Shown here piece after piece: positions 3,804 through 36,095 of a stretch of 64,000 nt of DNA. The position numbers and the translations under genes are program-made. Origin of the DNA: Escherichia coli (lineage in GTDB: Bacteria > Pseudomonadota > Gammaproteobacteria > Enterobacterales > Enterobacteriaceae); the NCBI RefSeq assembly GCF_045037415.1, contig NZ_CP173438.1, one strand, 5' to 3'. The notes beneath the pieces are model-generated. The model did no database searches, was not told the origin of the DNA, and saw only the letters and a program-made list of their open reading frames with translations. Within the stretch, counting starts at the first letter, position 1. Every line of letters begins with the position of its first letter.

Positions 3804-3822
3804 ACGCCTTCGCCAGAAATGC

Positions 3823-3851
3823 AAACAGGAGCCTAATGGCTCCTGTTTTTC
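3823..3851. terminator. Rho-independent hairpin between convergent alaC and ypdK
   Basis: Inverted repeat AAACAGGAGCC / GGCTCCTGTTT with TAAT loop, followed by T-run. Confidence 0.6.
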
Positions 3852-3867
3852 ATTGCACAGTTTGCTT

Positions 3868-3939
3868 TTAGATCATCAGGGCAAAAGTACCGGCCCAAAC
3901 GATGACCATAAAAGAAATGCCCATAAAGAAATATTTCAC
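3868..3939 (-). CDS. ypdK: Small membrane protein YpdK (23 aa), GTG start
   Basis: Reverse complement translates to (M)KYFFMGISFMVIVWAGTFALMI*, matching YpdK from memory; not in ORF track because below its length cutoff. Confidence 0.5.
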   Translation of the reverse strand: MKYFFMGISFMVIVWAGTFALMI

Positions 3940-8905: not shown

Positions 8906-10600
8906 ATGTCAGATCAACTTCAAATGACAGATGGTATGCATATCATCGTTGAAGCATTAAAACAGAATAATATTGACACTATTTATGGTGTTGTAGGTAT
9001 TCCTGTGACGGATATGGCGCGCCATGCCCAGGCGGAAGGCATTCGTTATATTGGTTTTCGTCATGAGCAGTCGGCAGGTTATGCCGCTGCAGCAAGCGGT
9101 TTTCTTACCCAAAAACCAGGGATCTGCCTGACAGTGTCTGCGCCAGGATTCCTCAACGGTTTGACCGCATTGGCCAATGCAACGGTAAATGGTTTTCCGA
9201 TGATCATGATTAGCGGCTCCAGCGACCGCGCGATCGTCGATCTCCAGCAAGGTGATTATGAAGAGCTGGACCAAATGAATGCGGCAAAACCGTATGCCAA
9301 AGCAGCATTTCGCGTTAATCAGCCGCAGGATCTTGGCATTGCATTGGCACGCGCTATCCGGGTCTCAGTATCGGGTCGTCCTGGCGGTGTTTATCTTGAT
9401 TTGCCAGCAAATGTCCTGGCCGCGACGATGGAAAAAGACGAAGCGTTAACCACGATTGTTAAAGTTGAAAATCCGTCGCCAGCATTATTGCCATGCCCGA
9501 AGTCAGTCACTAGCGCAATTTCGCTTTTAGCAAAAGCTGAACGACCATTAATTATTCTTGGCAAAGGCGCGGCGTATTCACAATCTGATGAACAGCTTCG
9601 TGAATTTATTGAAAGTGCCCAGATTCCATTCCTGCCAATGTCTATGGCGAAAGGGATCCTCGAAGATACGCATCCACTCTCTGCGGCAGCTGCGCGTTCG
9701 TTTGCCCTGGCAAATGCTGACGTTGTCATGCTTGTTGGTGCACGACTGAATTGGTTACTGGCACACGGTAAAAAAGGATGGGCGGCAGATACACAGTTTA
9801 TTCAACTGGATATTGAACCGCAGGAAATTGACAGCAACCGCCCCATTGCTGTGCCAGTCGTTGGCGATATTGCATCCAGTATGCAAGGTATGCTGGCAGA
9901 ATTGAAACAAAACACATTTACGACTCCACTGGTGTGGCGTGATATTTTAAATATCCACAAGCAGCAAAATGCACAAAAAATGCATGAAAAGTTAAGTACA
10001 GATACCCAACCATTAAATTACTTTAATGCATTGAGTGCCGTGCGCGATGTTTTGCGCGAGAACCAGGATATTTATTTAGTTAATGAAGGGGCAAATACCC
10101 TGGATAATGCACGAAATATTATTGATATGTATAAACCACGTCGTCGTCTGGATTGTGGCACTTGGGGTGTCATGGGCATCGGTATGGGCTATGCCATCGG
10201 TGCTAGCGTGACCTCTGGTTCTCCGGTTGTCGCTATTGAAGGTGATAGTGCTTTTGGTTTCAGTGGGATGGAGATTGAAACGATTTGTCGATATAACCTG
10301 CCGGTGACGATCGTTATTTTTAATAATGGCGGCATCTACAGAGGAGACGGTGTTGACCTCAGCGGCGCTGGTGCACCATCGCCAACGGATCTGTTGCACC
10401 ATGCAAGGTATGACAAATTAATGGATGCGTTTCGTGGCGTTGGCTATAACGTCACCACGACAGATGAACTTCGTCATGCTTTAACCACCGGAATTCAGTC
10501 GCGCAAACCGACCATTATTAATGTGGTCATCGACCCAGCAGCAGGAACTGAAAGTGGCCATATTACCAAACTTAACCCAAAACAAGTCGCTGGTAATTAA
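8906..10600 (+). CDS. oxc: Oxalyl-CoA decarboxylase Oxc (564 aa), ThDP-dependent
   Basis: ORF 564 aa MSDQLQMTDGMHIIVEALKQNNIDTIYGVVGIPV...; ThDP-enzyme pattern. Confidence 0.9.
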   Translation: MSDQLQMTDGMHIIVEALKQNNIDTIYGVVGIPVTDMARHAQAEGIRYIGFRHEQSAGYAAAASGFLTQKPGICLTVSAPGFLNGLTALANATVNGFPMIMISGSSDRAIVDLQQGDYEELDQMNAAKPYAKAAFRVNQPQDLGIALARAIRVSVSGRPGGVYLDLPANVLAATMEKDEALTTIVKVENPSPALLPCPKSVTSAISLLAKAERPLIILGKGAAYSQSDEQLREFIESAQIPFLPMSMAKGILEDTHPLSAAAARSFALANADVVMLVGARLNWLLAHGKKGWAADTQFIQLDIEPQEIDSNRPIAVPVVGDIASSMQGMLAELKQNTFTTPLVWRDILNIHKQQNAQKMHEKLSTDTQPLNYFNALSAVRDVLRENQDIYLVNEGANTLDNARNIIDMYKPRRRLDCGTWGVMGIGMGYAIGASVTSGSPVVAIEGDSAFGFSGMEIETICRYNLPVTIVIFNNGGIYRGDGVDLSGAGAPSPTDLLHHARYDKLMDAFRGVGYNVTTTDELRHALTTGIQSRKPTIINVVIDPAAGTESGHITKLNPKQVAGN

Positions 10601-24260: not shown

Positions 24261-24280
24261 ATGGTGTCCCCTGCAGGAAT
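24261..24280. repeat. Distal attachment-site repeat of the argW-integrated element
   Basis: ATGGTGTCCCCTGCAGGAAT is an exact 20-bp copy of the argW 3' end at 36076-36095. Confidence 0.8.
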
Positions 24281-24400
24281 GTGATTAATGAATTAAGAAA
24301 TTGATTTTTATGAATATAAAATTTTTATTGTCATAATTCTATACACTTAGTTATACACATAAGAAAAAATCAGTGATTTTTATGGACTGGGTGTATCTTC

Positions 24401-24490
24401 CCCAGCCCAGCCCAGCCCAGCCCAGCCCAGCCCAGCCCAGCCCAGCCCAGCCCAGCCCAGCCCAGCCCAGCCCAGCCCAGCCCAGCCCAG
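24401..24490. repeat. Pentanucleotide microsatellite (CCCAG)x18
   Basis: Read directly: 90 bp of perfect CCCAG units, then CCCCAACAAA. Confidence 0.95.
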
Positions 24491-24582
24491 CCCCAACAAA
24501 CCTAATGCAGTCTTTAGTTTACAAATTGTTACATATATTATTCGTCAAATTTCATTATTATCAGAGAGGTAATGACTCCAAC

Positions 24583-25086
24583 TTATTGATAGTGTTTTAT
24601 GTTCAGATAATGCCCGATGACTTTGTCATGCAGCTCCACCGATTTTGAGAACGACAGCGACTTCCGTCCCAGCCGTGCCAGGTGCTGCCTCAGATTCAGG
24701 TTATGCCGCTCAATTCGCTGCGTATATCGCTTGCTGATTACGTGCAGCTTTCCCTTCAGGCGGGATTCATACAGCGGCCAGCCATCCGTCATCCATATCA
24801 CCACGTCAAAGGGTGACAGCAGGCTCATAAGACGCCCCAGCGTCGCCATCGTGCGTTCACCGAATACGTGCGCAACAACCGTCTTCCGGAGCCTGTCATA
24901 CGCGTAAAACAGCCAGCGCTGGCGCGATTTAGCCCCGACATAGCCCCACTGTTCGTCCATTTCCGCGCAGACGATGACGTCACTGCCCGGCTGTATGCGC
25001 GAGGTTACCGACTGCGGCCTGAGTTTTTTAAGTGACGTAAAATCGTGTTGAGGCCAACGCCCATAATGCGGGCTGTTGCCCGGCAT
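24583..25086 (-). CDS. insB: IS1 transposase InsB (167 aa)
   Basis: [53 protein letters not shown]..., matches IS1 InsB. Confidence 0.95.
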
Positions 25087-25280
25087 CCAACGCCATTCAT
25101 GGCCATATCAATGATTTTCTGGTGCGTACCGGGTTGAGAAGCGGTGTAAGTGAACTGCAGTTGCCATGTTTTACGGCAGTGAGAGCAGAGATAGCGCTGA
25201 TGTCCGGCGGTGCTTTTGCCGTTACGCACCACCCCGTCAGTAGCTGAACAGGAGGGACAGCTGATAGAAACAGAAGCCAC
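25005..25280 (-). CDS. insA: IS1 InsA (91 aa)
   Basis: [43 protein letters not shown]..., matches IS1 InsA. Confidence 0.95.
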
Positions 25281-25528
25281 TGGAGCACCTCAAAAACACC
25301 ATCATACACTAAATCAGTAAGTTGGCAGCATCACCTATCAGAGATTAACAAGCATTGGCAAAGGTTGTCACTCAGTAATACTCACCATTATTAACTATTA
25401 TTCACCATTATTTAGTATTCAAATTCTTTGAATGAGTTTGAAAGTGCCAGTCTTTACGTATTAATTCTTCTGTGCAAGTATATATACACCCAATAGAGAC
25501 TAATTAAGTCTTAGTATAAATATCTAAT

Positions 25529-25771
25529 GTGAAGGACATAGCCATGAGCTTATTGCCTCGGGAAAACGCACCCCAAAAAAGATATAGACTTCTGAGAATA
25601 TCAGAAGTGATTAATTTGACTGGCTTACCCAAGTCAACAATTTATCTAAAGATAAAGAATGATGAATTTCCGAACCAAGTTTCTATCGGTTCTCGTTCTG
25701 TTGCATGGGTGGAGCATGAAGTTAATGAATGGATAGAGAAGAATATTCTCAATAGAAAATTAAACTCCTAA
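25529..25771 (+). CDS. AlpA-family phage transcriptional regulator (HTH); true start may be the internal Met at 25544
   Basis: ORF 80 aa with YRLLRISEVINLTGLPKSTIYLKIKNDEFPNQVSIGSRSVAWVEHEVNEWI, the AlpA/MerR-like HTH pattern. Confidence 0.75.
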   Translation: MKDIAMSLLPRENAPQKRYRLLRISEVINLTGLPKSTIYLKIKNDEFPNQVSIGSRSVAWVEHEVNEWIEKNILNRKLNS

Positions 25772-25788
25772 ATTGAGGTGGCAAATAT

Positions 25789-26649
25789 ATGGTTGACAAT
25801 GTTTTTAAGAAGAAATTGGCATCAATTAAGAACGAACATGTGTCGGTGTTAGATAGTTACAAAGTAAGATCATTTAAAGAGACTCATAGCGACACGGCCT
25901 GTATTGTGCGTATTATTGAAATATATTCACTGAATAAGCTGCGAGCTAAAGGTGAAAAGCTGTATTCACTTACGGGGTTAACAGTACCTGATACGGAAAC
26001 TGTGGCGAATGAGATCAACCTGCTCCTGAGCCGTTATGCCCAGTTGTGTCGTCAGGAAGAGGAAGAGTTATCTTTCCGGCAGCGTGAAGTGACAAATGCG
26101 GAAGTTGCATGGAAAAGCACATTCTCAAAAAACGGCGTCAGTAGCATTGCTGAAGCCAAAACGAATAAAATGGGGCATGCTGAACGAGCGGATGCTGAAC
26201 GGTATTACCATCTGGCTGTTTCCCGGTTGAATGAACAACATAGTCGATTGAGCACGATCAAGCTTTTGCCGGGAGTACTGGCCGATGAAGGAAACTACAT
26301 TGGGAAGGGAATCGATAAGCGTTTACTGAATATATTTCCTCAATCCGGCCAGATCCCTGCTGATTTTATTTCTGTATTTAATGACAGTGACGTTGTCCGT
26401 GATATTAAATTTATTACTGATGCACTCAAGTCTTTATCTGATTCCGTGAGTGAAATTATTAGTCGTTGTAGCGTTCCAACTGATCGTTATGTATTAAATA
26501 ACGGTGGAATGGCAAGAGCTATGGCTTACAGGGAGTACTATCGAGCAGATAATTATGTATTACGTTCAGTCGTAAGTGACCGGGATTATGTTGAGCATGT
26601 AATGAAATACAATCTGGTTACTGAGTACAAAAATAAAATCTTTTCTTAA
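25789..26649 (+). CDS. Hypothetical protein (286 aa) directly upstream of capsid-like gene; possible scaffold or capsid-remodelling protein
   Basis: ORF track only; consistent coding frame; function assigned by position, not by motif. Confidence 0.5.
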   Translation: MVDNVFKKKLASIKNEHVSVLDSYKVRSFKETHSDTACIVRIIEIYSLNKLRAKGEKLYSLTGLTVPDTETVANEINLLLSRYAQLCRQEEEELSFRQREVTNAEVAWKSTFSKNGVSSIAEAKTNKMGHAERADAERYYHLAVSRLNEQHSRLSTIKLLPGVLADEGNYIGKGIDKRLLNIFPQSGQIPADFISVFNDSDVVRDIKFITDALKSLSDSVSEIISRCSVPTDRYVLNNGGMARAMAYREYYRADNYVLRSVVSDRDYVEHVMKYNLVTEYKNKIFS

Positions 26650-26671
26650 ATACTTAAAAAGGTGAAAAACT

Positions 26672-27676
26672 ATGTATGCCTTCAAAACTGAAAGGCCGGA
26701 CGCAGCACGTCGTTATCATAATAAATTCGTCACTGGCACTAACTATCAGGAAGAATCAAACAGACGCTTTGCATTAAGCGAACCTACTGAAAATATACTG
26801 CGTACCTCAATTCTGGAATCCGGGTGGCTTATTAAAAATATTACCCTACGTGATGTTAACGCCGTGTCAGGTAATGCCGTCAATATTGGTGCCAGTGAAC
26901 TGTATACCGGACGTGTGGATGGTGGCCGTTTCCACAAAAAAATGGCAATCAATGGTACGGAGTTCTTTCTGACAGAGACGGATACCTGCGCCCGGATCAG
27001 CTATTCCGATATGTCTCATATTTACCATACCGGCGTGCCGGATGAGTTTGAGAAAACGGTTGAGAGCTTTTTTGCCCAGGCATATGCGCTGGACATGCTG
27101 CGGGTCGGTTTCAACGGTGTGTCGATTGCAAATACTACAAACCCGGAAATCAATAAAAAAGGCGAGGATGTCAATATTGGCTGGCATGCACTGGCGAAAG
27201 CCTACGGGAACGGAAAGCAAATCATCTCTGAGCCTGTCACTCTGGGAGAGACTGGCACCTGGAAAAATATTGATGCTCTGGCCAACCATCTGATTACAGA
27301 GCTTATTGCTGAGCAGTTTCGTGAAGATCCTCGTCTGGTTGTACTGGTTGGGGCAGAGCTGGCAGCACATCAACGCCTGAAGTTATTTAATGCCGCAGAC
27401 CGCCCGTCTGATGTGAATGCGGCACAGATGGCTACAAGTTCTGTTGCTGGCCGCTTTGCGTTTATTCCCCCGTTTATGCCGGGTAAGCGTCTGGCAGTAA
27501 CGACGCTGGATAATCTGCATATTTACACTCAGGCGATAACACGCTGGTTTCGTGCTGAGTTTGATGATGAAAGCAGTGAATACGTGCATTCCTACCTGCG
27601 CAATGAAGGTTATGCACTCGGTGAACCTGAACTGTACGCGGCTGTTGATGAGTGCACCCTGACGTTTGCGGATTGA
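26672..27676 (+). CDS. P2-GpN-like major capsid protein homolog (334 aa)
   Basis: Blocks FALSEPTENILRTSILES..., MLRVGFNGV...NIGW..., DALANHLITELIAEQFREDPRLVVLVGAEL and TLDNLHIYT align by eye with my recollection of P2 GpN; needs profile confirmation. Confidence 0.45.
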   Translation: MYAFKTERPDAARRYHNKFVTGTNYQEESNRRFALSEPTENILRTSILESGWLIKNITLRDVNAVSGNAVNIGASELYTGRVDGGRFHKKMAINGTEFFLTETDTCARISYSDMSHIYHTGVPDEFEKTVESFFAQAYALDMLRVGFNGVSIANTTNPEINKKGEDVNIGWHALAKAYGNGKQIISEPVTLGETGTWKNIDALANHLITELIAEQFREDPRLVVLVGAELAAHQRLKLFNAADRPSDVNAAQMATSSVAGRFAFIPPFMPGKRLAVTTLDNLHIYTQAITRWFRAEFDDESSEYVHSYLRNEGYALGEPELYAAVDECTLTFAD

Positions 27677-27905
27677 CTTAGCGACAGAAAGACCCGCTCA
27701 GAGGCGGGTTCGTTTACAGCATCAGGAAAAATGAAGAACTATTTTTAAGCAGAGGCTTAAGCATGCCAGCGTTAATTAATCCAGGCAATGATCAGTTTTC
27801 GGTTATAAATTTCTTGCCTCACCAGGAATGCGCGGGATATAGTTTAAAGGTTGCCGCAAAATCGGCAGCCGGGCGTAGGAACCCGTGTTATCTGAAGGCG
27901 ATACT

Positions 27906-27929
27906 ACACGCGCTAGGCGTGTTTTTTTG
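27906..27929 (+). terminator. Rho-independent terminator inside the apparent non-coding leader upstream of the primase operon
   Basis: ACACGC-GCTAG-GCGTGT hairpin followed by TTTTTTT. Confidence 0.55.
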
Positions 27930-28149
27930 TGTCGCAGCTTTGACTCACCTAAAATTTATGGTGTGGTGGCTGATTGTATTTTTTTATTTTTTACGCCACA
28001 TCATCAGAATTATGGTAGTCCAGGCGGGGCAGCTTTCGGGCTGGCCGGTATCCTTCAGAGCCGGTATTCCTACCCCCGTCTGGGCTACCACCCATGAGCG
28101 TAGGAACTCCGGTGGTAGCGTTACCCGCTATCTGAAGGAGGTTGCCATT

Positions 28150-28353
28150 ATGGCTACAGTCCCTGCTTTATCTCACCCTGAATTTACCTTTGTCTTTCTG
28201 GCTGTCCGCCGTACAGACCGTGATGCCCGTCCACGCCCTGTGCGTGTAATCGCAGAATGCGAGCATGCTGCACGCCTTAAACTTGCCACTGAATTTATCC
28301 TGAGCTTTGCTGCCCGTATCCCTGTGAAAAGAGCCGGGGAGGTGGTTGCATGA
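28150..28353 (+). CDS. Small hypothetical protein (67 aa), first gene of a translationally coupled operon
   Basis: ATG at 28150 preceded by GAAGGAGG; stop overlaps next start (ATGA); the 196-aa ORF-track call 27763-28353 is treated as spurious upstream of this Met. Confidence 0.4.
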   Translation: MATVPALSHPEFTFVFLAVRRTDRDARPRPVRVIAECEHAARLKLATEFILSFAARIPVKRAGEVVA

Positions 28354-28586
28354 AATCCATGAATTTTAAGCAAGGCTGCATATTGAGTGAACAGGGGGAG
28401 AGTCGTCTGTTACGGGCGGCACTGGCCAGTGAGTTTCTTGCAGAGGTCTTGTCCGTGCCCACAGTGAATGGAGCGAGAACTGTTTCAGCGGAAGGCGCTG
28501 CGGCTTTAGTGGCCTGTATTGCCGAACAACTGGATGGCGTTGTTAAGGAAACCAGCACAATTAAGGGAGTGATGCGCGATGAATAA
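28350..28586 (+). CDS. Small hypothetical protein (78 aa)
   Basis: ORF track; start overlaps upstream stop and end overlaps next ORF. Confidence 0.45.
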   Translation: MKSMNFKQGCILSEQGESRLLRAALASEFLAEVLSVPTVNGARTVSAEGAAALVACIAEQLDGVVKETSTIKGVMRDE

Positions 28587-28989
28587 TAATCAAAATTTAA
28601 AGGCGCATGCTTTACGAACAGCAGTCTTACGCTACTACATTGCTGATGCATTCATTTCCTTAATGGTGCGTGTTCATAATGAACCTGTTTATATTGAAGA
28701 TGGCGAACGAATAGAACTCTCCCACGAAAAAGTGGTGAGTAATATTATTTACCATATTGAAATGCCGTGGGTGAATGAGTTTGGGGCTGATGCTGGTTGC
28801 ATACTGGCCGCAGAGAAACTGGAAAAAATGCTTAAACCAGGCTTTATGTCAGAAAATATTCGCCTGTCAGTTTTTGGTGTCACAGAGATGCGTGAGGTTT
28901 ACCGGGATATTATTTTCGGAGCACCTGATGGCGAACTACCCGAAGGTTTTGAATTTGTGAAGCCGGAAGGTCAGGAGGTGCTGCTGTGA
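28579..28989 (+). CDS. Hypothetical protein (136 aa) immediately upstream of primase
   Basis: ORF track; 4-nt overlap with primase start suggests coupling. Confidence 0.5.
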   Translation: MNNNQNLKAHALRTAVLRYYIADAFISLMVRVHNEPVYIEDGERIELSHEKVVSNIIYHIEMPWVNEFGADAGCILAAEKLEKMLKPGFMSENIRLSVFGVTEMREVYRDIIFGAPDGELPEGFEFVKPEGQEVLL

Positions 28990-31673
28990 AAACACCGTCT
29001 GTATCCACGATTTCCGGAGCTGCAATTGGGCGCTGGCCTTATATCCTGTCAGCATTAGGTATTAAAGTACCGTCCGCAGGACATCATGGGGCTTGCCCTG
29101 CCTGTGGTGGAAAAGATCGTTTTCGACTGGACGATAAAGCGGGGCGAGGGACGTGGTTTTGTAATCAGTGCGGTCATGGCGATGGTCTTGATCTGGTTCG
29201 TCTGGTGACAGGAAGAAAGATAAAAGAAGTCGCCGGGATGGTATCTGAGGCGCTTGCATTACCAGAAATACAGGAGAAGCCCGCATTGCCAGCCAGGAAA
29301 AAGGCCGCAGGAAAAGAAGCGGGCGCGGAGCGATATACCAGACTCAGACAGCAGTCCTGCAATGGTGAGCCGGTCTATCTGACAAATAAGAGCTTACACG
29401 GGTATTCACTTCCCTTGCTGTCACAGCCTTTGAATCTGGCCGGAATAACATTTTCCACCGGTTCATTACTGCTGCCTTTGACGGATATTTCCGGGAATAT
29501 TACTGGTGGCCAGCTTATCAATCCTGACGGGGATAAAAGTCTGCTGCCCGGTAGCCAGCTGTCTGGCGCATTCATTGCCCTGACCGATATACCCGCTGAA
29601 ACACCTGAACAGGTGATTATCACTGAGGGTTTTGCCACGGCGCTTACCGTCAGTCTGCTGACTGAAGGATGGATCGTGGCGGCTGTCGCTGCCACCAATT
29701 TACTGAAGGTGACGGAGCAGATCCGAAAACGCTGGCCGGAAACCCGGATCATTCTGGCCGGAGATAATGATCTGGCTGACGGCAAAGAAAACACCGGGCG
29801 TATTCAGGCAGAGAAAGCCGCCAAAGCGGTGGATGGCTGGGTAACGCTCCCTCCGGTACGCCATAAGGCTGACTGGGATGATTATCGGCAGGAAGTGGGG
29901 AAAGAACGGGCGAGAGATGCCTTTCGTGAAGAAATGACGCTGCATGGCAAAGGGCAGACCCGTTTACCAGAAGGGTTCCGGCTGACAAAAGAATATTTGT
30001 GGTACGACAAGCTGGTTAATAAGTCTGATGGTGATACAGAGATACGTAATATCAAAATTTGCAGTCCGTTGCGGGTGACGGCAATCACCAGTGATGCTGA
30101 TGGAAGTAATTACGGGCGTTTGCTGGAATGGGAAGATACCAACGGAAACAGCCGTAAATGGGCAATGCCGATGGAGATGCTGGGCGGTAGCGGGGAAGAA
30201 CTGCGCCGCGTTCTGCTGGTTAACGGGCTTTCTTACATCAACATTAACGGCATGGCCAGAGCATTCCTGATGGAATATATCTCGCTGTGTAAACCGGACA
30301 GAAAAGTAACCTGTGTGAATAAAACTGGCTGGCACGGCGGGGTTTACGTTCTCCAGGATGAAGTGATAGGGCGCGAAGCCCAGTCAGTCATCTTACAAAC
30401 ATCGAGTGTGCAGGGGCGTGATTTTCGTGTCAGCGGCACATCAGAGGGCTGGCGTGAAAATATAGGCCGTTATTGCATAAAGAATGCCCGTCTTGCCTTT
30501 GCGGTGAGTCTGGCATTTGCTGCCCCCCTTCTGAAACTGGTTGGTATCGGCGGTGGAGGTTATCACCTCAAAGGGGAATCCACAGACGGTAAAACCACGA
30601 CGATGAAAGTGGCTGCATCAGTATGTGGTGGAACAGATTTCTGGCATACGTGGCGGGCGACGGGGAATGCCTTAGAAGGAACGGCGAGCCGCCGCAATGA
30701 TGCCACGCTGATGCTGGATGAAATCCGGGAGGTTGACGGCAGGGAGGCGGGAAATATCGCTTATATGCTGGCTAACGGGCAGGGCAAAGCCAGAGCCAGA
30801 ACAGATGGTTCGGTAAGGGAAACCAACCGCTGGAATCTGTTGTTTCTGTCTACCGGGGAACTGTCACTGGTAGAGCATGCGGCAAGCGCCGGGGAACGTA
30901 CGTATGCCGGGGTTGAGGTCAGAATGATCCAGATCCCAAGCGATTCGGGCAAGTATGGCGTGTTTGAAGAACTTCATGGCTTCAGTAGCGGGAAAACCCT
31001 GGCTGAGCATCTTGAGCAGCACGTAGCGCATTATCATGGTGCACCATTCCGCGACTGGCTGTATTGCCTGACCGCTGATCTGCCGGAACTGACCAGTCAG
31101 GCGAAAGCCTTATTGAAAGAGTATACCCGAAGGCTGACGCCGGAAAATGCCGGGAATCAGGTTGGCCGGGCTGTTACCCGTTTTGCTCTGGTTGCGATGG
31201 CCGGGGAGCTGGCCACAAAAGCGGGCATCACAGGATGGCCGGAGGGAGAGGCCTTTCGTGCCGCTCAAAGCTGTCTGGCTGCATGGATGGCTGACCGGGG
31301 CCATACAGCTAATCAGGAAGATAAAGCGGCACTTGAACAGGTTCGGGACTTCATGACGCGTAATCAGTTCAGTCGGTTTGCTGACTGGAATGACGACAGG
31401 AACCGGCCTGTTTCAATGATGGGATTCAGAAAAGTCGATAAAGGAGACAACGTGACAGAGCCGGTTGTGACGTTCTACGTTCTCCCGTCAGGCTGGAAGG
31501 AGATCTGTAAGGGATTTGACTCGCGTAAGGTGGCCAGGTTGTGTGTGGACGCGGGCTGGCTGAAACCCGGTGAAGATGGCCGGACGCAAAACAGCATTCG
31601 CCTGCCAGAAATAGGGCTTAAACGTGTGTACCAGTTCAATACACAGGTACTGGGAAGCGCTGAACCTGAGTGA
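28986..31673 (+). CDS. P4-alpha-like zinc-binding primase-helicase (895 aa)
   Basis: N-terminal CPACGG...FCNQCGHGDG zinc-finger pair; Walker A GESTDGKTT; overall satellite replication-protein architecture. Confidence 0.8.
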   Translation: MKTPSVSTISGAAIGRWPYILSALGIKVPSAGHHGACPACGGKDRFRLDDKAGRGTWFCNQCGHGDGLDLVRLVTGRKIKEVAGMVSEALALPEIQEKPALPARKKAAGKEAGAERYTRLRQQSCNGEPVYLTNKSLHGYSLPLLSQPLNLAGITFSTGSLLLPLTDISGNITGGQLINPDGDKSLLPGSQLSGAFIALTDIPAETPEQVIITEGFATALTVSLLTEGWIVAAVAATNLLKVTEQIRKRWPETRIILAGDNDLADGKENTGRIQAEKAAKAVDGWVTLPPVRHKADWDDYRQEVGKERARDAFREEMTLHGKGQTRLPEGFRLTKEYLWYDKLVNKSDGDTEIRNIKICSPLRVTAITSDADGSNYGRLLEWEDTNGNSRKWAMPMEMLGGSGEELRRVLLVNGLSYININGMARAFLMEYISLCKPDRKVTCVNKTGWHGGVYVLQDEVIGREAQSVILQTSSVQGRDFRVSGTSEGWRENIGRYCIKNARLAFAVSLAFAAPLLKLVGIGGGGYHLKGESTDGKTTTMKVAASVCGGTDFWHTWRATGNALEGTASRRNDATLMLDEIREVDGREAGNIAYMLANGQGKARARTDGSVRETNRWNLLFLSTGELSLVEHAASAGERTYAGVEVRMIQIPSDSGKYGVFEELHGFSSGKTLAEHLEQHVAHYHGAPFRDWLYCLTADLPELTSQAKALLKEYTRRLTPENAGNQVGRAVTRFALVAMAGELATKAGITGWPEGEAFRAAQSCLAAWMADRGHTANQEDKAALEQVRDFMTRNQFSRFADWNDDRNRPVSMMGFRKVDKGDNVTEPVVTFYVLPSGWKEICKGFDSRKVARLCVDAGWLKPGEDGRTQNSIRLPEIGLKRVYQFNTQVLGSAEPE

Positions 31674-31699
31674 TTATCGCGTGAGTCTTATTTTTATGA

Positions 31700-31888
31700 G
31701 GTAACACTGGTAACAGAGGTAACACCCGTTACTGATGCGGTTCTTCAGTGTTACCAGTCAAAAATACTGACTGGTAACAGAGGTAACAAAAAATGGTGTG
31801 TTACCACGCGTTACCTCTTGATTTTGCTAACTGGTAACAGATTAAATCCTTTTAAATCAATAGCGTTACACGTGTTACCAGTGTTACA
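31700..31888. promoter_or_regulatory. Iteron cluster, candidate origin of replication of the element
   Basis: At least 12 copies of GGTAACA / TGTTAC(C/A) in both orientations within ~190 bp just 3' of the primase gene. Confidence 0.55.
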
Positions 31889-31955
31889 CGTTCAGAACAA
31901 GAGGTAGGGATCCAAATCCCTTCTTCTGGCGGGCAACAGTATAGGGCACAGAACG

Positions 31956-32228
31956 ATGAAGATGATGAGAATGTACTGCCCCACATGTCAGGCAGTAGCA
32001 CGGATAGGTAAAACAAACAGGAAACACCCACAACTGTACGATGTGTACTGCTATTGCTCTAATGTGGAGTGCGGTCACTCGTTTGTGATGAATGTTGCTT
32101 TCTCCCATTCCGTTAGTCCAAGCGCGCTGAACGGGCAGGGAAGGGTTAAAGAGCTGATTGATGCAATTCCACCCGAGGAACGGGAAAAGGCTTTAAAGTT
32201 GCTGCTGGCTGCGCAAAAGAATGGGTAA
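31956..32228 (+). CDS. Ogr/Delta-family zinc-finger late-gene activator-like protein (about 87-90 aa)
   Basis: ORF MKMMRMYCPTCQAVARIGKTNRKHPQLYDVYCYCSNVECGHSF...; C-x2-C ... C-x4-C spacing typical of Ogr/Delta. Confidence 0.65.
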   Translation: MKMMRMYCPTCQAVARIGKTNRKHPQLYDVYCYCSNVECGHSFVMNVAFSHSVSPSALNGQGRVKELIDAIPPEEREKALKLLLAAQKNG

Positions 32229-32907
32229 AGTATGCGTCGGGAATGGCCGATCTGTTCCCGGAACCTGAACACAGGATTTCAGTTTATACGGTCATAAAAT
32301 TATTATTTTTCAACTGGTTATCTTCTTCATGTTTCACAAACCTTCATAAAATCACACACCTAAAATTAATTATCCATTTAATATCATAGAGTTGCGTATT
32401 CAGGCCATAGATTCGACGGACAGTAAAACTGAAAAAAAATGAATTTCTTTTCATTCTTTTCAGTTCCTGTATCGCAGTACATCTCGAGGACTGGCACGGA
32501 CTGGCGGTATCGTTTGTAAAAAATCCAGGCTGAAAATTTTTAGTGATATGAAAACCGCAGGCGGGTGCGGTGTAGTGCCGTTTTGGTCTGTCGAGCGTAT
32601 ATTTTCCTTTTTCACGATTGCTGCATATCAAAACGAATGTGCAGATATCAGGCCGTGTCAAACCGTGAATCGTGGAGCCTAAATGCCCAAACTACGTTTG
32701 TAGACCTAGCTAGGGGAAGGTTTCCACATATACTGCTACCTATCTTCCAGTCGCTGGTGAGGATCAAGGTAAGCTAACTGGTGAACAAGAAAAGTACTTT
32801 CGTATCTTGCGTACTCGTTTTTTTTGATTAGTATGTACAGGTAGTAACTGGATGGTGAGAATTCGTCATAACTTATCAAATTGCATGATGTTTATAGAGT
32901 ATGAGTA

Positions 32908-33789
32908 ATGAGTCATAATAAAAAGGAATATGCTAAATTTTTCCGTCGCCCCATTTTTTCATCCTTAGCAAAAGGTAAGGATATTTCGGATTTATTTGGG
33001 AGTTTTGATTCTTACTGCTATGAAACACTGTTTTCAAACAATGATAATAATGAACATGAGATTTCACTAAGGGATTTATTTACATCATTATATGATTTTT
33101 TGCGTCTGAATTATAGAAATGAATATGTTTATAAGACAGCACTTGTCAATAAAATAATATTCGGTAAGCACAGCCCAAAAACAAGTTCGTCGTCCATAGA
33201 GTTACCAATTAAAAACTCTATAGTGGATGTTGCGGTGTTTAATGGTACGTCTACAGCTTACGAGATTAAGACAGAGTATGATTCACCAAAAAGGTTGATT
33301 ACTCAAGCCCCTGATTATTTGGATGTTTTTGATAAAGTGTATATAGTTACACATCCAGAGTATGCAAGTAAATATTGTGCTTTAAATCTCCCCAGAGTGG
33401 GAGTTATGGTTTTGAATAAAAAAGATCAATTGAGTGTCATTAAGGAGGCAGATTCAAATATTGATTATATTAAAAGTGACAGCTTGTTTTCAGTTCTTAG
33501 AAAGGAAGAGTTCTTAGCTATAATAGAAGATTACACTTCAACTAAAATAAATATGCCTAACGGATTGGTTTATGAATATTGTAAAGAGATATTCATGCAG
33601 ATGCCATTAAACATAGCAAATAAATACTTTATCTCTGCTATGAAAAAAAGATGTAACGATAAAGTTTTTTTGGATTATATTTATTCTCTTCCAGCATGTT
33701 TACGTGTTTTAGGTTATGCAACACCATTATCAAGAAAGCAAAAAGAATTCATCATGAATTTGATGGATGTAAAAATTAAAATTTGTTGA
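32908..33789 (+). CDS. Hypothetical protein A (293 aa), AT-rich cargo gene with PD-(D/E)xK-like motif
   Basis: ORF track; IVDVAVFNGTSTAYEIKTE (D107 ... E119-x-K121) resembles a restriction-endonuclease-fold catalytic core; strong AT bias unlike flanking DNA. Confidence 0.6.
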   Translation: MSHNKKEYAKFFRRPIFSSLAKGKDISDLFGSFDSYCYETLFSNNDNNEHEISLRDLFTSLYDFLRLNYRNEYVYKTALVNKIIFGKHSPKTSSSSIELPIKNSIVDVAVFNGTSTAYEIKTEYDSPKRLITQAPDYLDVFDKVYIVTHPEYASKYCALNLPRVGVMVLNKKDQLSVIKEADSNIDYIKSDSLFSVLRKEEFLAIIEDYTSTKINMPNGLVYEYCKEIFMQMPLNIANKYFISAMKKRCNDKVFLDYIYSLPACLRVLGYATPLSRKQKEFIMNLMDVKIKIC

Positions 33790-33810
33790 TATCCTCAGGA
33801 GTTGTAAGTT

Positions 33811-34761
33811 ATGTATAGCCCATATTTGTATGCGAGAAGTACAGAGTTATTATGCCTTAGGGACCTCGTTGCGAAGGGAGTTAGCCTAAATGGTCTGCTA
33901 CCAATTTTAGAACCAATTAACGTCAATACGAGAAATTTATTAACATGTTTAAATGTTTGGAATTCTGACATAATTGTTATCCTTAATCCTTATCAGGAAG
34001 ATTTTTCTTCACACAATAACGTCTTAACTTTAAATCAAAATTTATCAAGTGTATTAACAAATAAAAATAATATCATCTCTGGATATCTTATTCAGCCCAA
34101 TACAACGATTAATGATATTAATAATTGGTTGAATGCTAACTTAAATAGACGAGTTGCACTTCTATATGATAATCCATCATTATCCAACTCTGATATTCAG
34201 TTGTTGGCGACAAATCAATTGATTAGTTATCATGTTGTTTTAAATAATAAAATGCTTCCTAATCAGTGCGCTCTTCTTCCTTTGTCGAAGTTAATTATTA
34301 TTAGCGATAACTTTAGAAAGTTAGCAAAAAATGCTGATTATAATGGGCCGGAACTTTTCACGCACGCACATCAATTCGTGGGACAAAATTACTTAGGATT
34401 TGGCGATTATACAATTACTGGCCAGGTACTAGATCTTGGAGGTGGTCAACCTTCTGCTGTTGCCGCACATTTGGTGTTCAAGAATTTACAAGCGAATACA
34501 GTTTGGATTCGTCATTTTGTATCAAGCAACACGCAACGAGGAAGTTCAAATGTTACTGCAAAATTTTTAGATGTTTCAGATCAAATTACAAATCTTGTTC
34601 CCCAACATCCAACCCAGTTTGGCAGCAACATTGGTCTTAACTATTATTATTACAATAGTCAACCAACTGTAAGGCATTTCCCTGGGTTGCCAAAAAACAA
34701 ACAGTATCAAATTACTCACCATATTTGTTTCATGCTGGATTTAATAGCAGGTCGTATTTAA
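33811..34761 (+). CDS. Hypothetical protein B (316 aa), AT-rich cargo gene, Asn/Ser/Leu-rich, no motif I can assign
   Basis: ORF track; AGGAG Shine-Dalgarno 8 nt upstream; 21-bp gap from gene A; 3' end overlaps integrase 3' end convergently. Confidence 0.6.
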   Translation: MYSPYLYARSTELLCLRDLVAKGVSLNGLLPILEPINVNTRNLLTCLNVWNSDIIVILNPYQEDFSSHNNVLTLNQNLSSVLTNKNNIISGYLIQPNTTINDINNWLNANLNRRVALLYDNPSLSNSDIQLLATNQLISYHVVLNNKMLPNQCALLPLSKLIIISDNFRKLAKNADYNGPELFTHAHQFVGQNYLGFGDYTITGQVLDLGGGQPSAVAAHLVFKNLQANTVWIRHFVSSNTQRGSSNVTAKFLDVSDQITNLVPQHPTQFGSNIGLNYYYYNSQPTVRHFPGLPKNKQYQITHHICFMLDLIAGRI

Positions 34762-35916
34762 TAAGCTAGCGTACCATTCCATCATTACTTGTCGATCTTT
34801 AATATATTGCGCATGATTGTAAGTACCTCGAATAGAGTTCTTATCAACATGCGCAAGCTGCATTTCAATCCAGGCACTTTCAAACCCATGCTCATGCAAG
34901 ATGGTGCTCATGGTATGCCTGAAACCGTGACCCGTTAACCGACCGTGATAACCCAGTAGTTTTATCACTTTGTTGATGCTGGCTTCGCTCATTGGTTTAC
35001 TGACGTCATTCCGGCCAGGGAAAACGAGGCTGTAATTCCCTGTTATTTCTTGCAGCTTTTTCAGGATATTGATCGCCTGAGTTGATAACGGAACCAGATG
35101 GGGGCGGCGTTTCTTCATCCGTTCTTTGGGGATCTCCCATAAGGCATTATCTAAATCAAACTCAGCCCATTCCGCTGCACGTAGTTCAATTGTTCGCACG
35201 CCTGTTAGCATCAACAGCTGCGTGGCGTATTTGGTAACTAAACTGCCCTGATAGTTATCCAGAGCATTAACGAACTCGGGCAACTCGCTTTCAGTCAGGA
35301 ACGGGAAGTGTTGGGTTTTAGGTTTGTTGAGTGCGATAGCTAAATCGGGTGCAAAATTATACTTTGCTCTACCAGTGGCAACAGCATAACGAAGCACTTC
35401 ACCACAGCGGCGGCGGATCTTACTGGTTTGCTCTAGCGCACCTCTTTTCTCTATTTTTTGCAGGACGGTTAGCAGTTCTAATGGTTCAATCTGCTCAATT
35501 GGGCGCTGGCCGATAAAAGGAAAAATATCCTTTTCCATACAATTGAGAACCTCTTTTGCATAACCCTCTGACCAGGTGGCTTTTTTCGATGAGTGCCATT
35601 CTCTGGCCACAGACTCAAAGCTGTTCTCATGCGCGAACTGCAAAGCAATCTTATCTGCTTTTCTGGCTTCACTTGGGTTTATCCCGTTGGCTAACATCGA
35701 ACGCGCTTCATCACGTTTGGTACGTGCCTGTGCCAACGACACATCGCCATATACGCCAAAGGAAATCATCTTAGGCTTACCTGCAAAGCGATAGCGAAAA
35801 CGCCAGCCTTTACTGCCCGCTGTGTCGATCAGGAGTGATAGCCCCATACCATCGTTAAGCGTATAGGGTTTGTCCTTCGGTTTTGCTCTTTTTATTTGGA
35901 TGTCAGATAGCAGCAT
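34741..35916 (-). CDS. P4-family tyrosine integrase (391 aa)
   Basis: ORF 407 aa trimmed to MLLSDIQIKRAKPKDKPYTLNDGMGLSLL...; C-terminal HxxR ... Y catalytic pattern; adjacent to tRNA. Confidence 0.85.
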   Translation of the reverse strand: MLLSDIQIKRAKPKDKPYTLNDGMGLSLLIDTAGSKGWRFRYRFAGKPKMISFGVYGDVSLAQARTKRDEARSMLANGINPSEARKADKIALQFAHENSFESVAREWHSSKKATWSEGYAKEVLNCMEKDIFPFIGQRPIEQIEPLELLTVLQKIEKRGALEQTSKIRRRCGEVLRYAVATGRAKYNFAPDLAIALNKPKTQHFPFLTESELPEFVNALDNYQGSLVTKYATQLLMLTGVRTIELRAAEWAEFDLDNALWEIPKERMKKRRPHLVPLSTQAINILKKLQEITGNYSLVFPGRNDVSKPMSEASINKVIKLLGYHGRLTGHGFRHTMSTILHEHGFESAWIEMQLAHVDKNSIRGTYNHAQYIKDRQVMMEWYASLLNTTCY

Positions 35917-36075
35917 GTGTATAGAAAAAAGATCGAACTCAGTTATACACAATGTTATACGCAAAGATGTATAGATTCCATTAGAAATAATGGTACTTTG
36001 CTGGACGAGTATAAGGAGATGATATCAGTTAAAACAGTGAGTTATGGAATTAATTGAACTTAGTGAGAAGTGTTC

Positions 36076-36095
36076 ATGGTGTCCCCTGCAGGAAT
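36076..36095. repeat. tRNA-proximal attachment-site repeat (overlaps argW 3' end)
   Basis: ATGGTGTCCCCTGCAGGAAT, identical to 24261-24280. Confidence 0.8.

Follow-up and report, generated by a model that had tools for sequence, protein, structure and literature searches.

A twelve-iteron dyad behind a chimeric primase-helicase gene as the likely replication origin of a P4-like satellite of Escherichia coli

The intergenic region that follows a primase-helicase gene on E. coli contig NZ_CP173438.1 is crowded with copies of a single heptamer, and the question raised by this locus is what purpose these repeats serve. An earlier note, made from the letters of the DNA, had taken them for a candidate replication origin bound by the product of the adjacent gene. 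The analysis of the whole stretch of DNA (64 kb, referred to as the window) and of its relatives indicated that the array is very probably the vegetative replication origin of a P4-like satellite of ~11 kb integrated at a tRNA-Arg gene. Strong comparative support for an origin bound by the neighboring primase-helicase came from four sides, namely gene linkage, layout, footprint and the match with SaPIbov1-type origins.

To describe the array, its repeats were counted and compared with the rest of the window. The heptamer GGTAACA/TGTTACC was found 18 times in the 64 kb, with nine of the copies within 31700-31879, and this total was not reached in any of 100 dinucleotide-preserving shuffles (mean 6.2, maximum 13). 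The 5-nt core GTAAC was present 13 times in only 187 bp (31701-31887), nine times as exact GGTAACA, while the best other 200-bp window held three copies. The dense array in both orientations that had been reported for 31700-31888 was thus confirmed, and eleven of the twelve coordinates listed for its units were correct; the other one, 31823, should read 31833. The extended unit comprises about 9-10 nt, A-[C/G]-[T/A]-G-GTAACA, with tandem iterons spaced at 9 bp. Twelve of the cores form a dyad about 31794 (centre 31793/31794), in which three direct, one inverted and two direct iterons are followed by their mirror image, and the positions of the two halves mirror each other within 1 bp (Table 1). 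The thirteenth core was dropped from the set because it is not conserved in the relatives, which makes a functional iteron improbable there. The array lies immediately downstream of the primase-helicase gene, as had been claimed, its first iteron beginning 26 bp past the stop codon (31673), and its end is separated from the ogr/Delta-like gene by 67 bp. No Rfam family matched the array.

Table 1. Coordinates of the satellite, its genes and RNAs, and the repeats and boxes of the intergenic region.
Feature	Position	Strand	Remarks
Whole integrated satellite	24261..36095		11,835 bp, including the 768-bp insertion (presumably IS1)
attL	24261-24280		Exact 20-bp direct repeat of the tRNA-Arg(CCT) 3' end
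CCCAG pentanucleotide tract	24400-24484		~17 copies; adjoins the 768-bp insertion
768-bp insertion	24568-25335
P2-family major capsid protein homologue	26672-27676		PHROG 70, E = 2e-86
Icd-like ORF (annotated)	27763-28353		Encloses isrK and the C4 antisense RNA
isrK (Rfam)	27850-27927		69 bits
C4 antisense RNA (Rfam)	28008-28095		81 bits
Primase-helicase initiator	28986..31673	+	895 aa
TCTTATTTTT box, TCTTAT(T/A)TTT	31686..31695	+	Just ahead of the first iteron; from the alignment of 18 related arrays
Left half-site	31700..31788	+	Six iterons, 3+1+2
GGTAACA iterons, left half	31700, 31709, 31718	+
Extra degenerate core, CGTTACT	31727..31733	-	Thirteenth core (GTAAC core at 31728)
TGTTACC iteron, left half	31749	-
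GGTAACA iterons, left half, inner pair	31773, 31782	+
Dyad centre	31789..31798		AAAAATGGTG, 10 bp, separates the two inner pairs
Right half-site	31799..31888	-	Six iterons, 2+1+3
Right-half inner pair	31799, 31809	-	TGTTACC, CGTTACC
GGTAACA iteron, right half	31833	+
Weakest duplex of the intergenic region	31840..31863		Candidate unwinding site
Right-half outer triplet	31864, 31873, 31882	-	CGTTACA, TGTTACC, TGTTACA
TGT-N12-ACA dyad, TGTTACACGTTCAGAACA	31882..31899	+	Ogr/Delta-type activator-site pattern
Ogr/Delta-like zinc-finger activator gene	31956..32228	+	Annotation, PHROG 603; first gene after the array
attR	36076-36095		Exact 20-bp direct repeat of the tRNA-Arg(CCT) 3' end

The element that carries the array was delimited by its attachment sites. 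Its gene order is an HTH regulator, a hypothetical gene, the P2-family capsid homologue, the Icd-like ORF, two small ORFs and the primase-helicase gene, followed by the array, delta, a low-GC sce7726/sce7725 pair and the integrase. An integrase at a tRNA attachment site, a P4-type CI/C4 immunity RNA and a delta/ogr activator are present, and the isrK and C4 sequences within the Icd-like ORF form, ahead of the replication genes, an RNA-based immunity region of the P4 type. Neither sid nor psu was found in the annotation or the PHROG matches of the element, which is a P4-like satellite lacking these two genes. The capsid homologue scored 204.6 bits against TIGR01551, slightly below the curated cutoff of 219.65, and the finding of such a gene in a satellite with delta and without sid or psu suggests that the helper capsid is exploited or remodelled in a different way. 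A reading of the array as a cos or packaging site was left without support, the P4/P2 cos 19-mer GGCGAGGCGGGGAAAGCAC being absent from the whole window at up to three mismatches; a diverged cos could still be present.

Both the CCCAG tract and the 768-bp insertion are situated past attL, ahead of the first satellite gene. The insertion is taken by us to be an IS1 on account of its terminal sequences, and in the reference strain SK1144 the distance between dsdC and the array is shorter by ~0.8 kb, coordinates which are consistent with no insertion there. The sce7726/sce7725 pair (32908-34761, ~30% GC) lies where P4 has its defence hotspot, with delta on one side and the integrase on the other; the first of its proteins matched the PADLOC model 'cll' (E = 1e-18), and at the same position two relatives (L003 and L004) carry retron St85 or an ABC-three-component system. 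The locus was detected in 449 of 5426 complete E. coli genomes, ST131-labelled strains among them, and a blastn search of a phage collection with 28900-32400 gave no match.

The protein encoded just upstream of the array was then considered, since the earlier note had drawn a parallel with the sites bound by P4 alpha. Pfam recognized Zn_Ribbon_Prim, Toprim_3 and DUF927 domains in it (DUF927 at aa 331-614, E = 6e-91), and the Walker A (GESTDGKTT) and Walker B (DE) motifs are intact and invariant among the relatives. In BLASTP, aa 1-317, which span the Zn-ribbon and Toprim domains, showed 38% identity to alpha (E = 2e-49), and no similarity to alpha was detected beyond aa 317. In a sequence search of solved structures, the ATPase core matched SaPIbov1 Rep (8TCH) and the SCCmec helicase Cch (5DGK), and the same two structures were matched by the fold of an AlphaFold model of the last 270 aa (pLDDT 83). 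When the last 110 aa were modelled separately (pLDDT 90, pTM 0.83), the sole match in the fold search was the C-terminal part of 8TCH (TM 0.65, probability 1.00), so the C-terminal domain (aa ~786-895) is predicted to fold like its counterpart in SaPIbov1 Rep. The hhalign comparison with the alpha C-terminus gave a probability of 0.1%. Therefore, the initiator is chimeric, joining a primase of the P4-alpha type to a helicase and C-terminal domain of the SaPIbov1 Rep type, because the similarity to alpha stops at aa 317 while the helicase and C-terminal matches go to SaPIbov1 Rep. The likeness to alpha holds for the primase N-terminus only, and an origin-binding domain homologous to that of alpha was not supported by BLASTP, hhalign or the fold search, despite the near-identical iteron.

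Relatives of the locus were found via E. coli genomes and through a scan of genome contigs. Within E. coli, a P4-like satellite with sid, psu and delta at tRNA-Leu carries an array of the unit GGTGGAACA after the helicase stop, and an AlpA-type island has an equal arrangement after the helicase stop with the units GTGGTACA/GTGGGACA. The scan, with one genome per species, yielded 80 loci from alpha-, beta-, gamma- and delta-proteobacteria, 74 of them usable. When an array was defined as at least six copies of one hexamer in the 350 bp past the helicase stop, 66 of the 74 loci carried one, as against 2.2% of 3434 control windows taken from the same loci. Most arrays follow the layout >9>9>31<24>9>17<10<24>31<9<9<, which recurs across genera with small variations; several alphaproteobacterial loci have a single half-site only. 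The iteron unit changes with the protein lineage (GGTAACA, GGTTACA, GGTGTAACA, GGTGGAACA, GGTGGTACA, GGTGTGAC, GGGTTAC, GGAGCCA, GGGGAAC, CGTAACA and others). The comparison across related elements, which had been proposed as a check, thus gave a conserved layout with a lineage-specific unit.

Additionally, 18 arrays of the GGTAACA class from about a dozen genera were aligned. Conservation reached 91% in the iteron columns and 55% in the spacers (Mann-Whitney p = 9e-22). As the unit shifts by lineage while the layout is kept, and with the footprint obtained in this one class, each iteron sequence appears to be specific to its cognate initiator. A hint that the iteron is read by the C-terminal domain was provided by two groups of proteins, 91% identical, with GGTGGAACA and GGTGTAACA iterons, respectively: their last 110 aa differ at only three fixed positions, all of them located in a predicted beta-hairpin, a contrast that rests on few lineages. 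When specificity residues were sought column by column over six iteron classes, phylogeny confounded the search and no clean signal emerged.

These data also bear on whether the array might be a relic that has decayed or lost its function, or a repeat due to chance or low complexity, which is extremely improbable. The presumed IS1 insertion and the lack of sid and psu mean that the element could be degenerate, and three of the twelve iterons depart from the consensus. However, selective conservation of the iterons extends over about a dozen genera, the primase-helicase gene has an intact ORF and catalytic motifs, the heptamer count was beyond the reach of the shuffles, and 420 of the 449 E. 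coli genomes have the locus at an identity of 99% or more.

A role in transcription, in which the repeats would be operator or activator sites for the ogr/Delta-like gene or for autoregulation of the primase operon and would have no part in replication, is very unlikely. It could be proposed since the array occupies the space between the primase-helicase gene and delta, since the TGT-N12-ACA dyad, 57 bp ahead of the delta start codon, shares bases with the last iteron, and since a delta-like gene stands next to the array in 20 relatives. Nevertheless, the gene that follows an array of the same layout is another one in 52 of 72 loci (sid/psu-like in 9, unrelated in 43), and because the next gene varies in this way the array belongs with the helicase rather than with the downstream gene. 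The iteron likewise tracks the helicase lineage and not the gene downstream, and arrays of the same layout are present in SaPIbov1-type islands without delta. The TGT-N12-ACA pattern occurs in some relatives and is only partly conserved over the 18 aligned arrays. A promoter or terminator reading was discarded, as neither a sigma-70-like promoter on the + strand nor an intrinsic terminator was found inside the array. Given the overlap of the dyad with the last iteron, part of the array region may also serve transcription; the dyad possibly belongs to a late promoter and not to the origin, and the right edge of the array may double as a late-promoter element.

With the origin reading retained, the array was compared with the replication systems of other mobile elements. 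As set out in two reports (PMC7581432, PMC9371898, both citing Ubeda et al. 2007), SaPI origins lie just downstream of rep and have 6-12 iterons in two opposed sets, they are recognized by the C-terminal winged-helix domain of Rep, and Rep appears to load as two hexamers; the origin of SaPIbov1 has been put to experimental test. The SaPIbov1-type loci used here encode a Rep that matches 8TCH at all of the 221 aa queried, and their layout right after rep is >10>11>23<44>9>[~90, AT-rich]<9<43>23<11< (L090, 5375-5660). They share with the E. coli element an array immediately 3' of the initiator gene, twelve short iterons in a 3+1+2 and 2+1+3 dyad, an initiator with a DUF927 helicase core and a C-terminal domain of like fold (Rep being MCM-like and self-loading, 8TCH), and an iteron specificity that varies between lineages. 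The two systems differ in the unit (heptamer GGTAACA versus GTACCC-type hexamers), in the inner spacings (31/24 versus 23/44) and in the central spacer (~10 bp versus an AT-rich stretch of about 80-90 bp); the identity between the two initiators is ~15%, and, unlike in SaPIbov1, the primase of the element is of the P4-alpha type and fused to the helicase, in a Gram-negative host.

The same organization is found in the E. coli PICIs, and the rep-ori module of EcCICFT073 was tested on a temperature-sensitive plasmid (PMC6092414). The supplementary tables of that work have no entry for the element studied here. EcCICFT073 resembles the element in its E. coli host, in being a phage satellite integrated beside a host gene, and in an array right after rep with two opposed sets of 2+1+3 and 2+1+2 iterons (>9>46<22>11>9> then <11<22>46<9<; L087, 12013-12240). 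By contrast, its iteron is TCTACC, the regulatory module of the element is P4-like (C4/CI RNA, delta) and not of the AlpA type, and the EcCICFT073 Rep belongs to a different helicase family with no detectable similarity to the initiator of the element. It was rejected as a direct experimental precedent for this last reason, and since its helicase is unrelated the sole experimental precedent for a DUF927 Rep and its origin is staphylococcal, at ~15% identity.

In SCCmec, the C-terminal domain of the helicase Cch2 binds direct repeats just downstream of its own gene (PMC7581432). Cch resembles the initiator of the element in its DUF927 helicase, by structural similarity (5DGK). The putative SCCmec origin consists of three 5-nt iterons as compared with the 12-unit dyad, and SCCmec, which has CCPol-MP as its primase system, differs from the element also in not being a phage satellite.

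The comparison with P4 was of special concern, as the earlier note had seen in the array the equivalent of the P4 ori and crr sites with a different repeat unit. P4 shares with the element the homologous Zn-ribbon/Toprim primase, a P4-type immunity RNA and a delta-type activator, whereas the helicase and origin-binding domain of alpha has no detected counterpart in the initiator. The unit is indeed a heptamer instead of an octamer, yet it is only one base short of that of P4: GGTGAACA minus one base gives GGTAACA, and on the other strand the type-1 octamer TGTTCACC becomes TGTTACC. In P4, two separated clusters, ori and crr, are both required in cis; the annotated ori is one 3+1+2 half-site, >10>11>22<43>10> (L002, 9311-9413), and crr lies directly downstream of the alpha gene, with ori 4.5 kb away. 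The element has one array, a full dyad without type-2 repeats. Because there is only one array, it would correspond to ori and not to the ori-plus-crr pair, and the earlier equivalence is kept for the first of these sites alone.

The position of the array directly downstream of the primase gene is nevertheless that of crr, and its iteron is one base from the P4 type-1 repeat. A crr-like function was considered on these grounds, in which the initiator would bind the array as a cis-acting enhancer or a copy-control ('handcuffing') site and initiation would take place elsewhere in the element. This is unlikely. No second iteron cluster was found in 24261-36095, and only 4 of ~60 relatives had one within the flanks examined; in its layout the array agrees with the half-site of the P4 ori and with the origin of SaPIbov1, and not with crr. 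In the four distant relatives with a second cluster of cognate iterons a few kb from the helicase (L050 ~9105-9140, L070 ~3811-3880, L076 ~2008-2210 and L064 ~8177), a P4-like duplication into ori and crr could be present.

As judged from these comparisons of sequence, the array of the element belongs to the known SaPI/PICI-type class of origins, of which it is a well-supported and ordinary example. The half-site spacings of the P4 ori, the EcCICFT073 ori and the SaPIbov1-type origins are nearly equal (~10, 11, 22-23, 43-46, 9-10), with different helicase families.

Moreover, the intergenic region was searched for other origin components. The TCTTAT of the box ahead of the first iteron is invariant across the 18 related arrays. 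The least stable segment, 31840-31863, is 80% A+T with a nearest-neighbor dG of -24.0 kcal/mol, which places it among the least stable 0.8% of the 24-mers of the window, and it contains a TAAATCAA box (31852-31860) conserved in the 18 arrays. This box resembles an IHF core but has five spacer bases instead of four. A search for an AT-rich centre of the dyad found a central gap of only ~10 bp, the weakest 24-mer being off-centre. Neither the DnaA box TTWTNCACA nor the canonical IHF site WATCAANNNNTTR was present in 31600-32000, and a DnaA-dependent origin of the RepA iteron-plasmid type was rejected for want of such sites by the iterons.

The preferred reading, a vegetative origin used by the adjacent initiator, can be put as a sequence of proposed steps. 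The initiator would be a self-loading hexamer of the SaPIbov1 Rep/Cch (DUF927) type, the C-terminal domains of which would recognize the GGTAACA iterons, one iteron per subunit. The two mirror half-sites of six iterons would place two hexamers in opposite orientation, giving double-hexamer loading. The duplex would most plausibly be opened at the weakest segment, the fused P4-alpha-type Zn-ribbon/Toprim primase would lay the primers, and the host replisome would finish bidirectional synthesis. The melting step is uncertain because the dyad centre does not have the long AT-rich spacer of the staphylococcal origins and the weakest DNA lies off-centre.

A broader idea, put forward tentatively and held to be rather doubtful, is that a half-site of three direct, one inverted and two direct iterons might be a general loading platform with one iteron for each subunit of the hexamer. 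Half-sites of the 3+1+2 form were observed at origins with unrelated helicases, DUF927/MCM-like in SaPIbov1 and the element and D5/SF3-like in P4 and EcCICFT073. In the proteobacterial DUF927 systems the half-sites would have been fused head-to-head, an arrangement that leaves almost no central AT-rich spacer, and for this reason opening might be asymmetric, at the conserved AT box of 31840-31863 and not between the hexamers.

About 8% of complete E. coli genomes carry this satellite, and its likely origin has been narrowed to a 190-bp fragment, which is amenable to cloning, deletion and marker-frequency assays. The parts worth following up are the conserved 12-iteron dyad, its compressed centre and the grammar held in common with P4. 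The comparative set amounts to a natural series of initiator-iteron pairs with one layout and different 7-9-mers, sometimes three C-terminal substitutions apart, and may be useful as a system for studying how origins are read by self-loading helicases. The common 3+1+2 grammar ties together the origins of P4, PICIs and SaPIs, and offers a testable hint on how their hexamers may be loaded.
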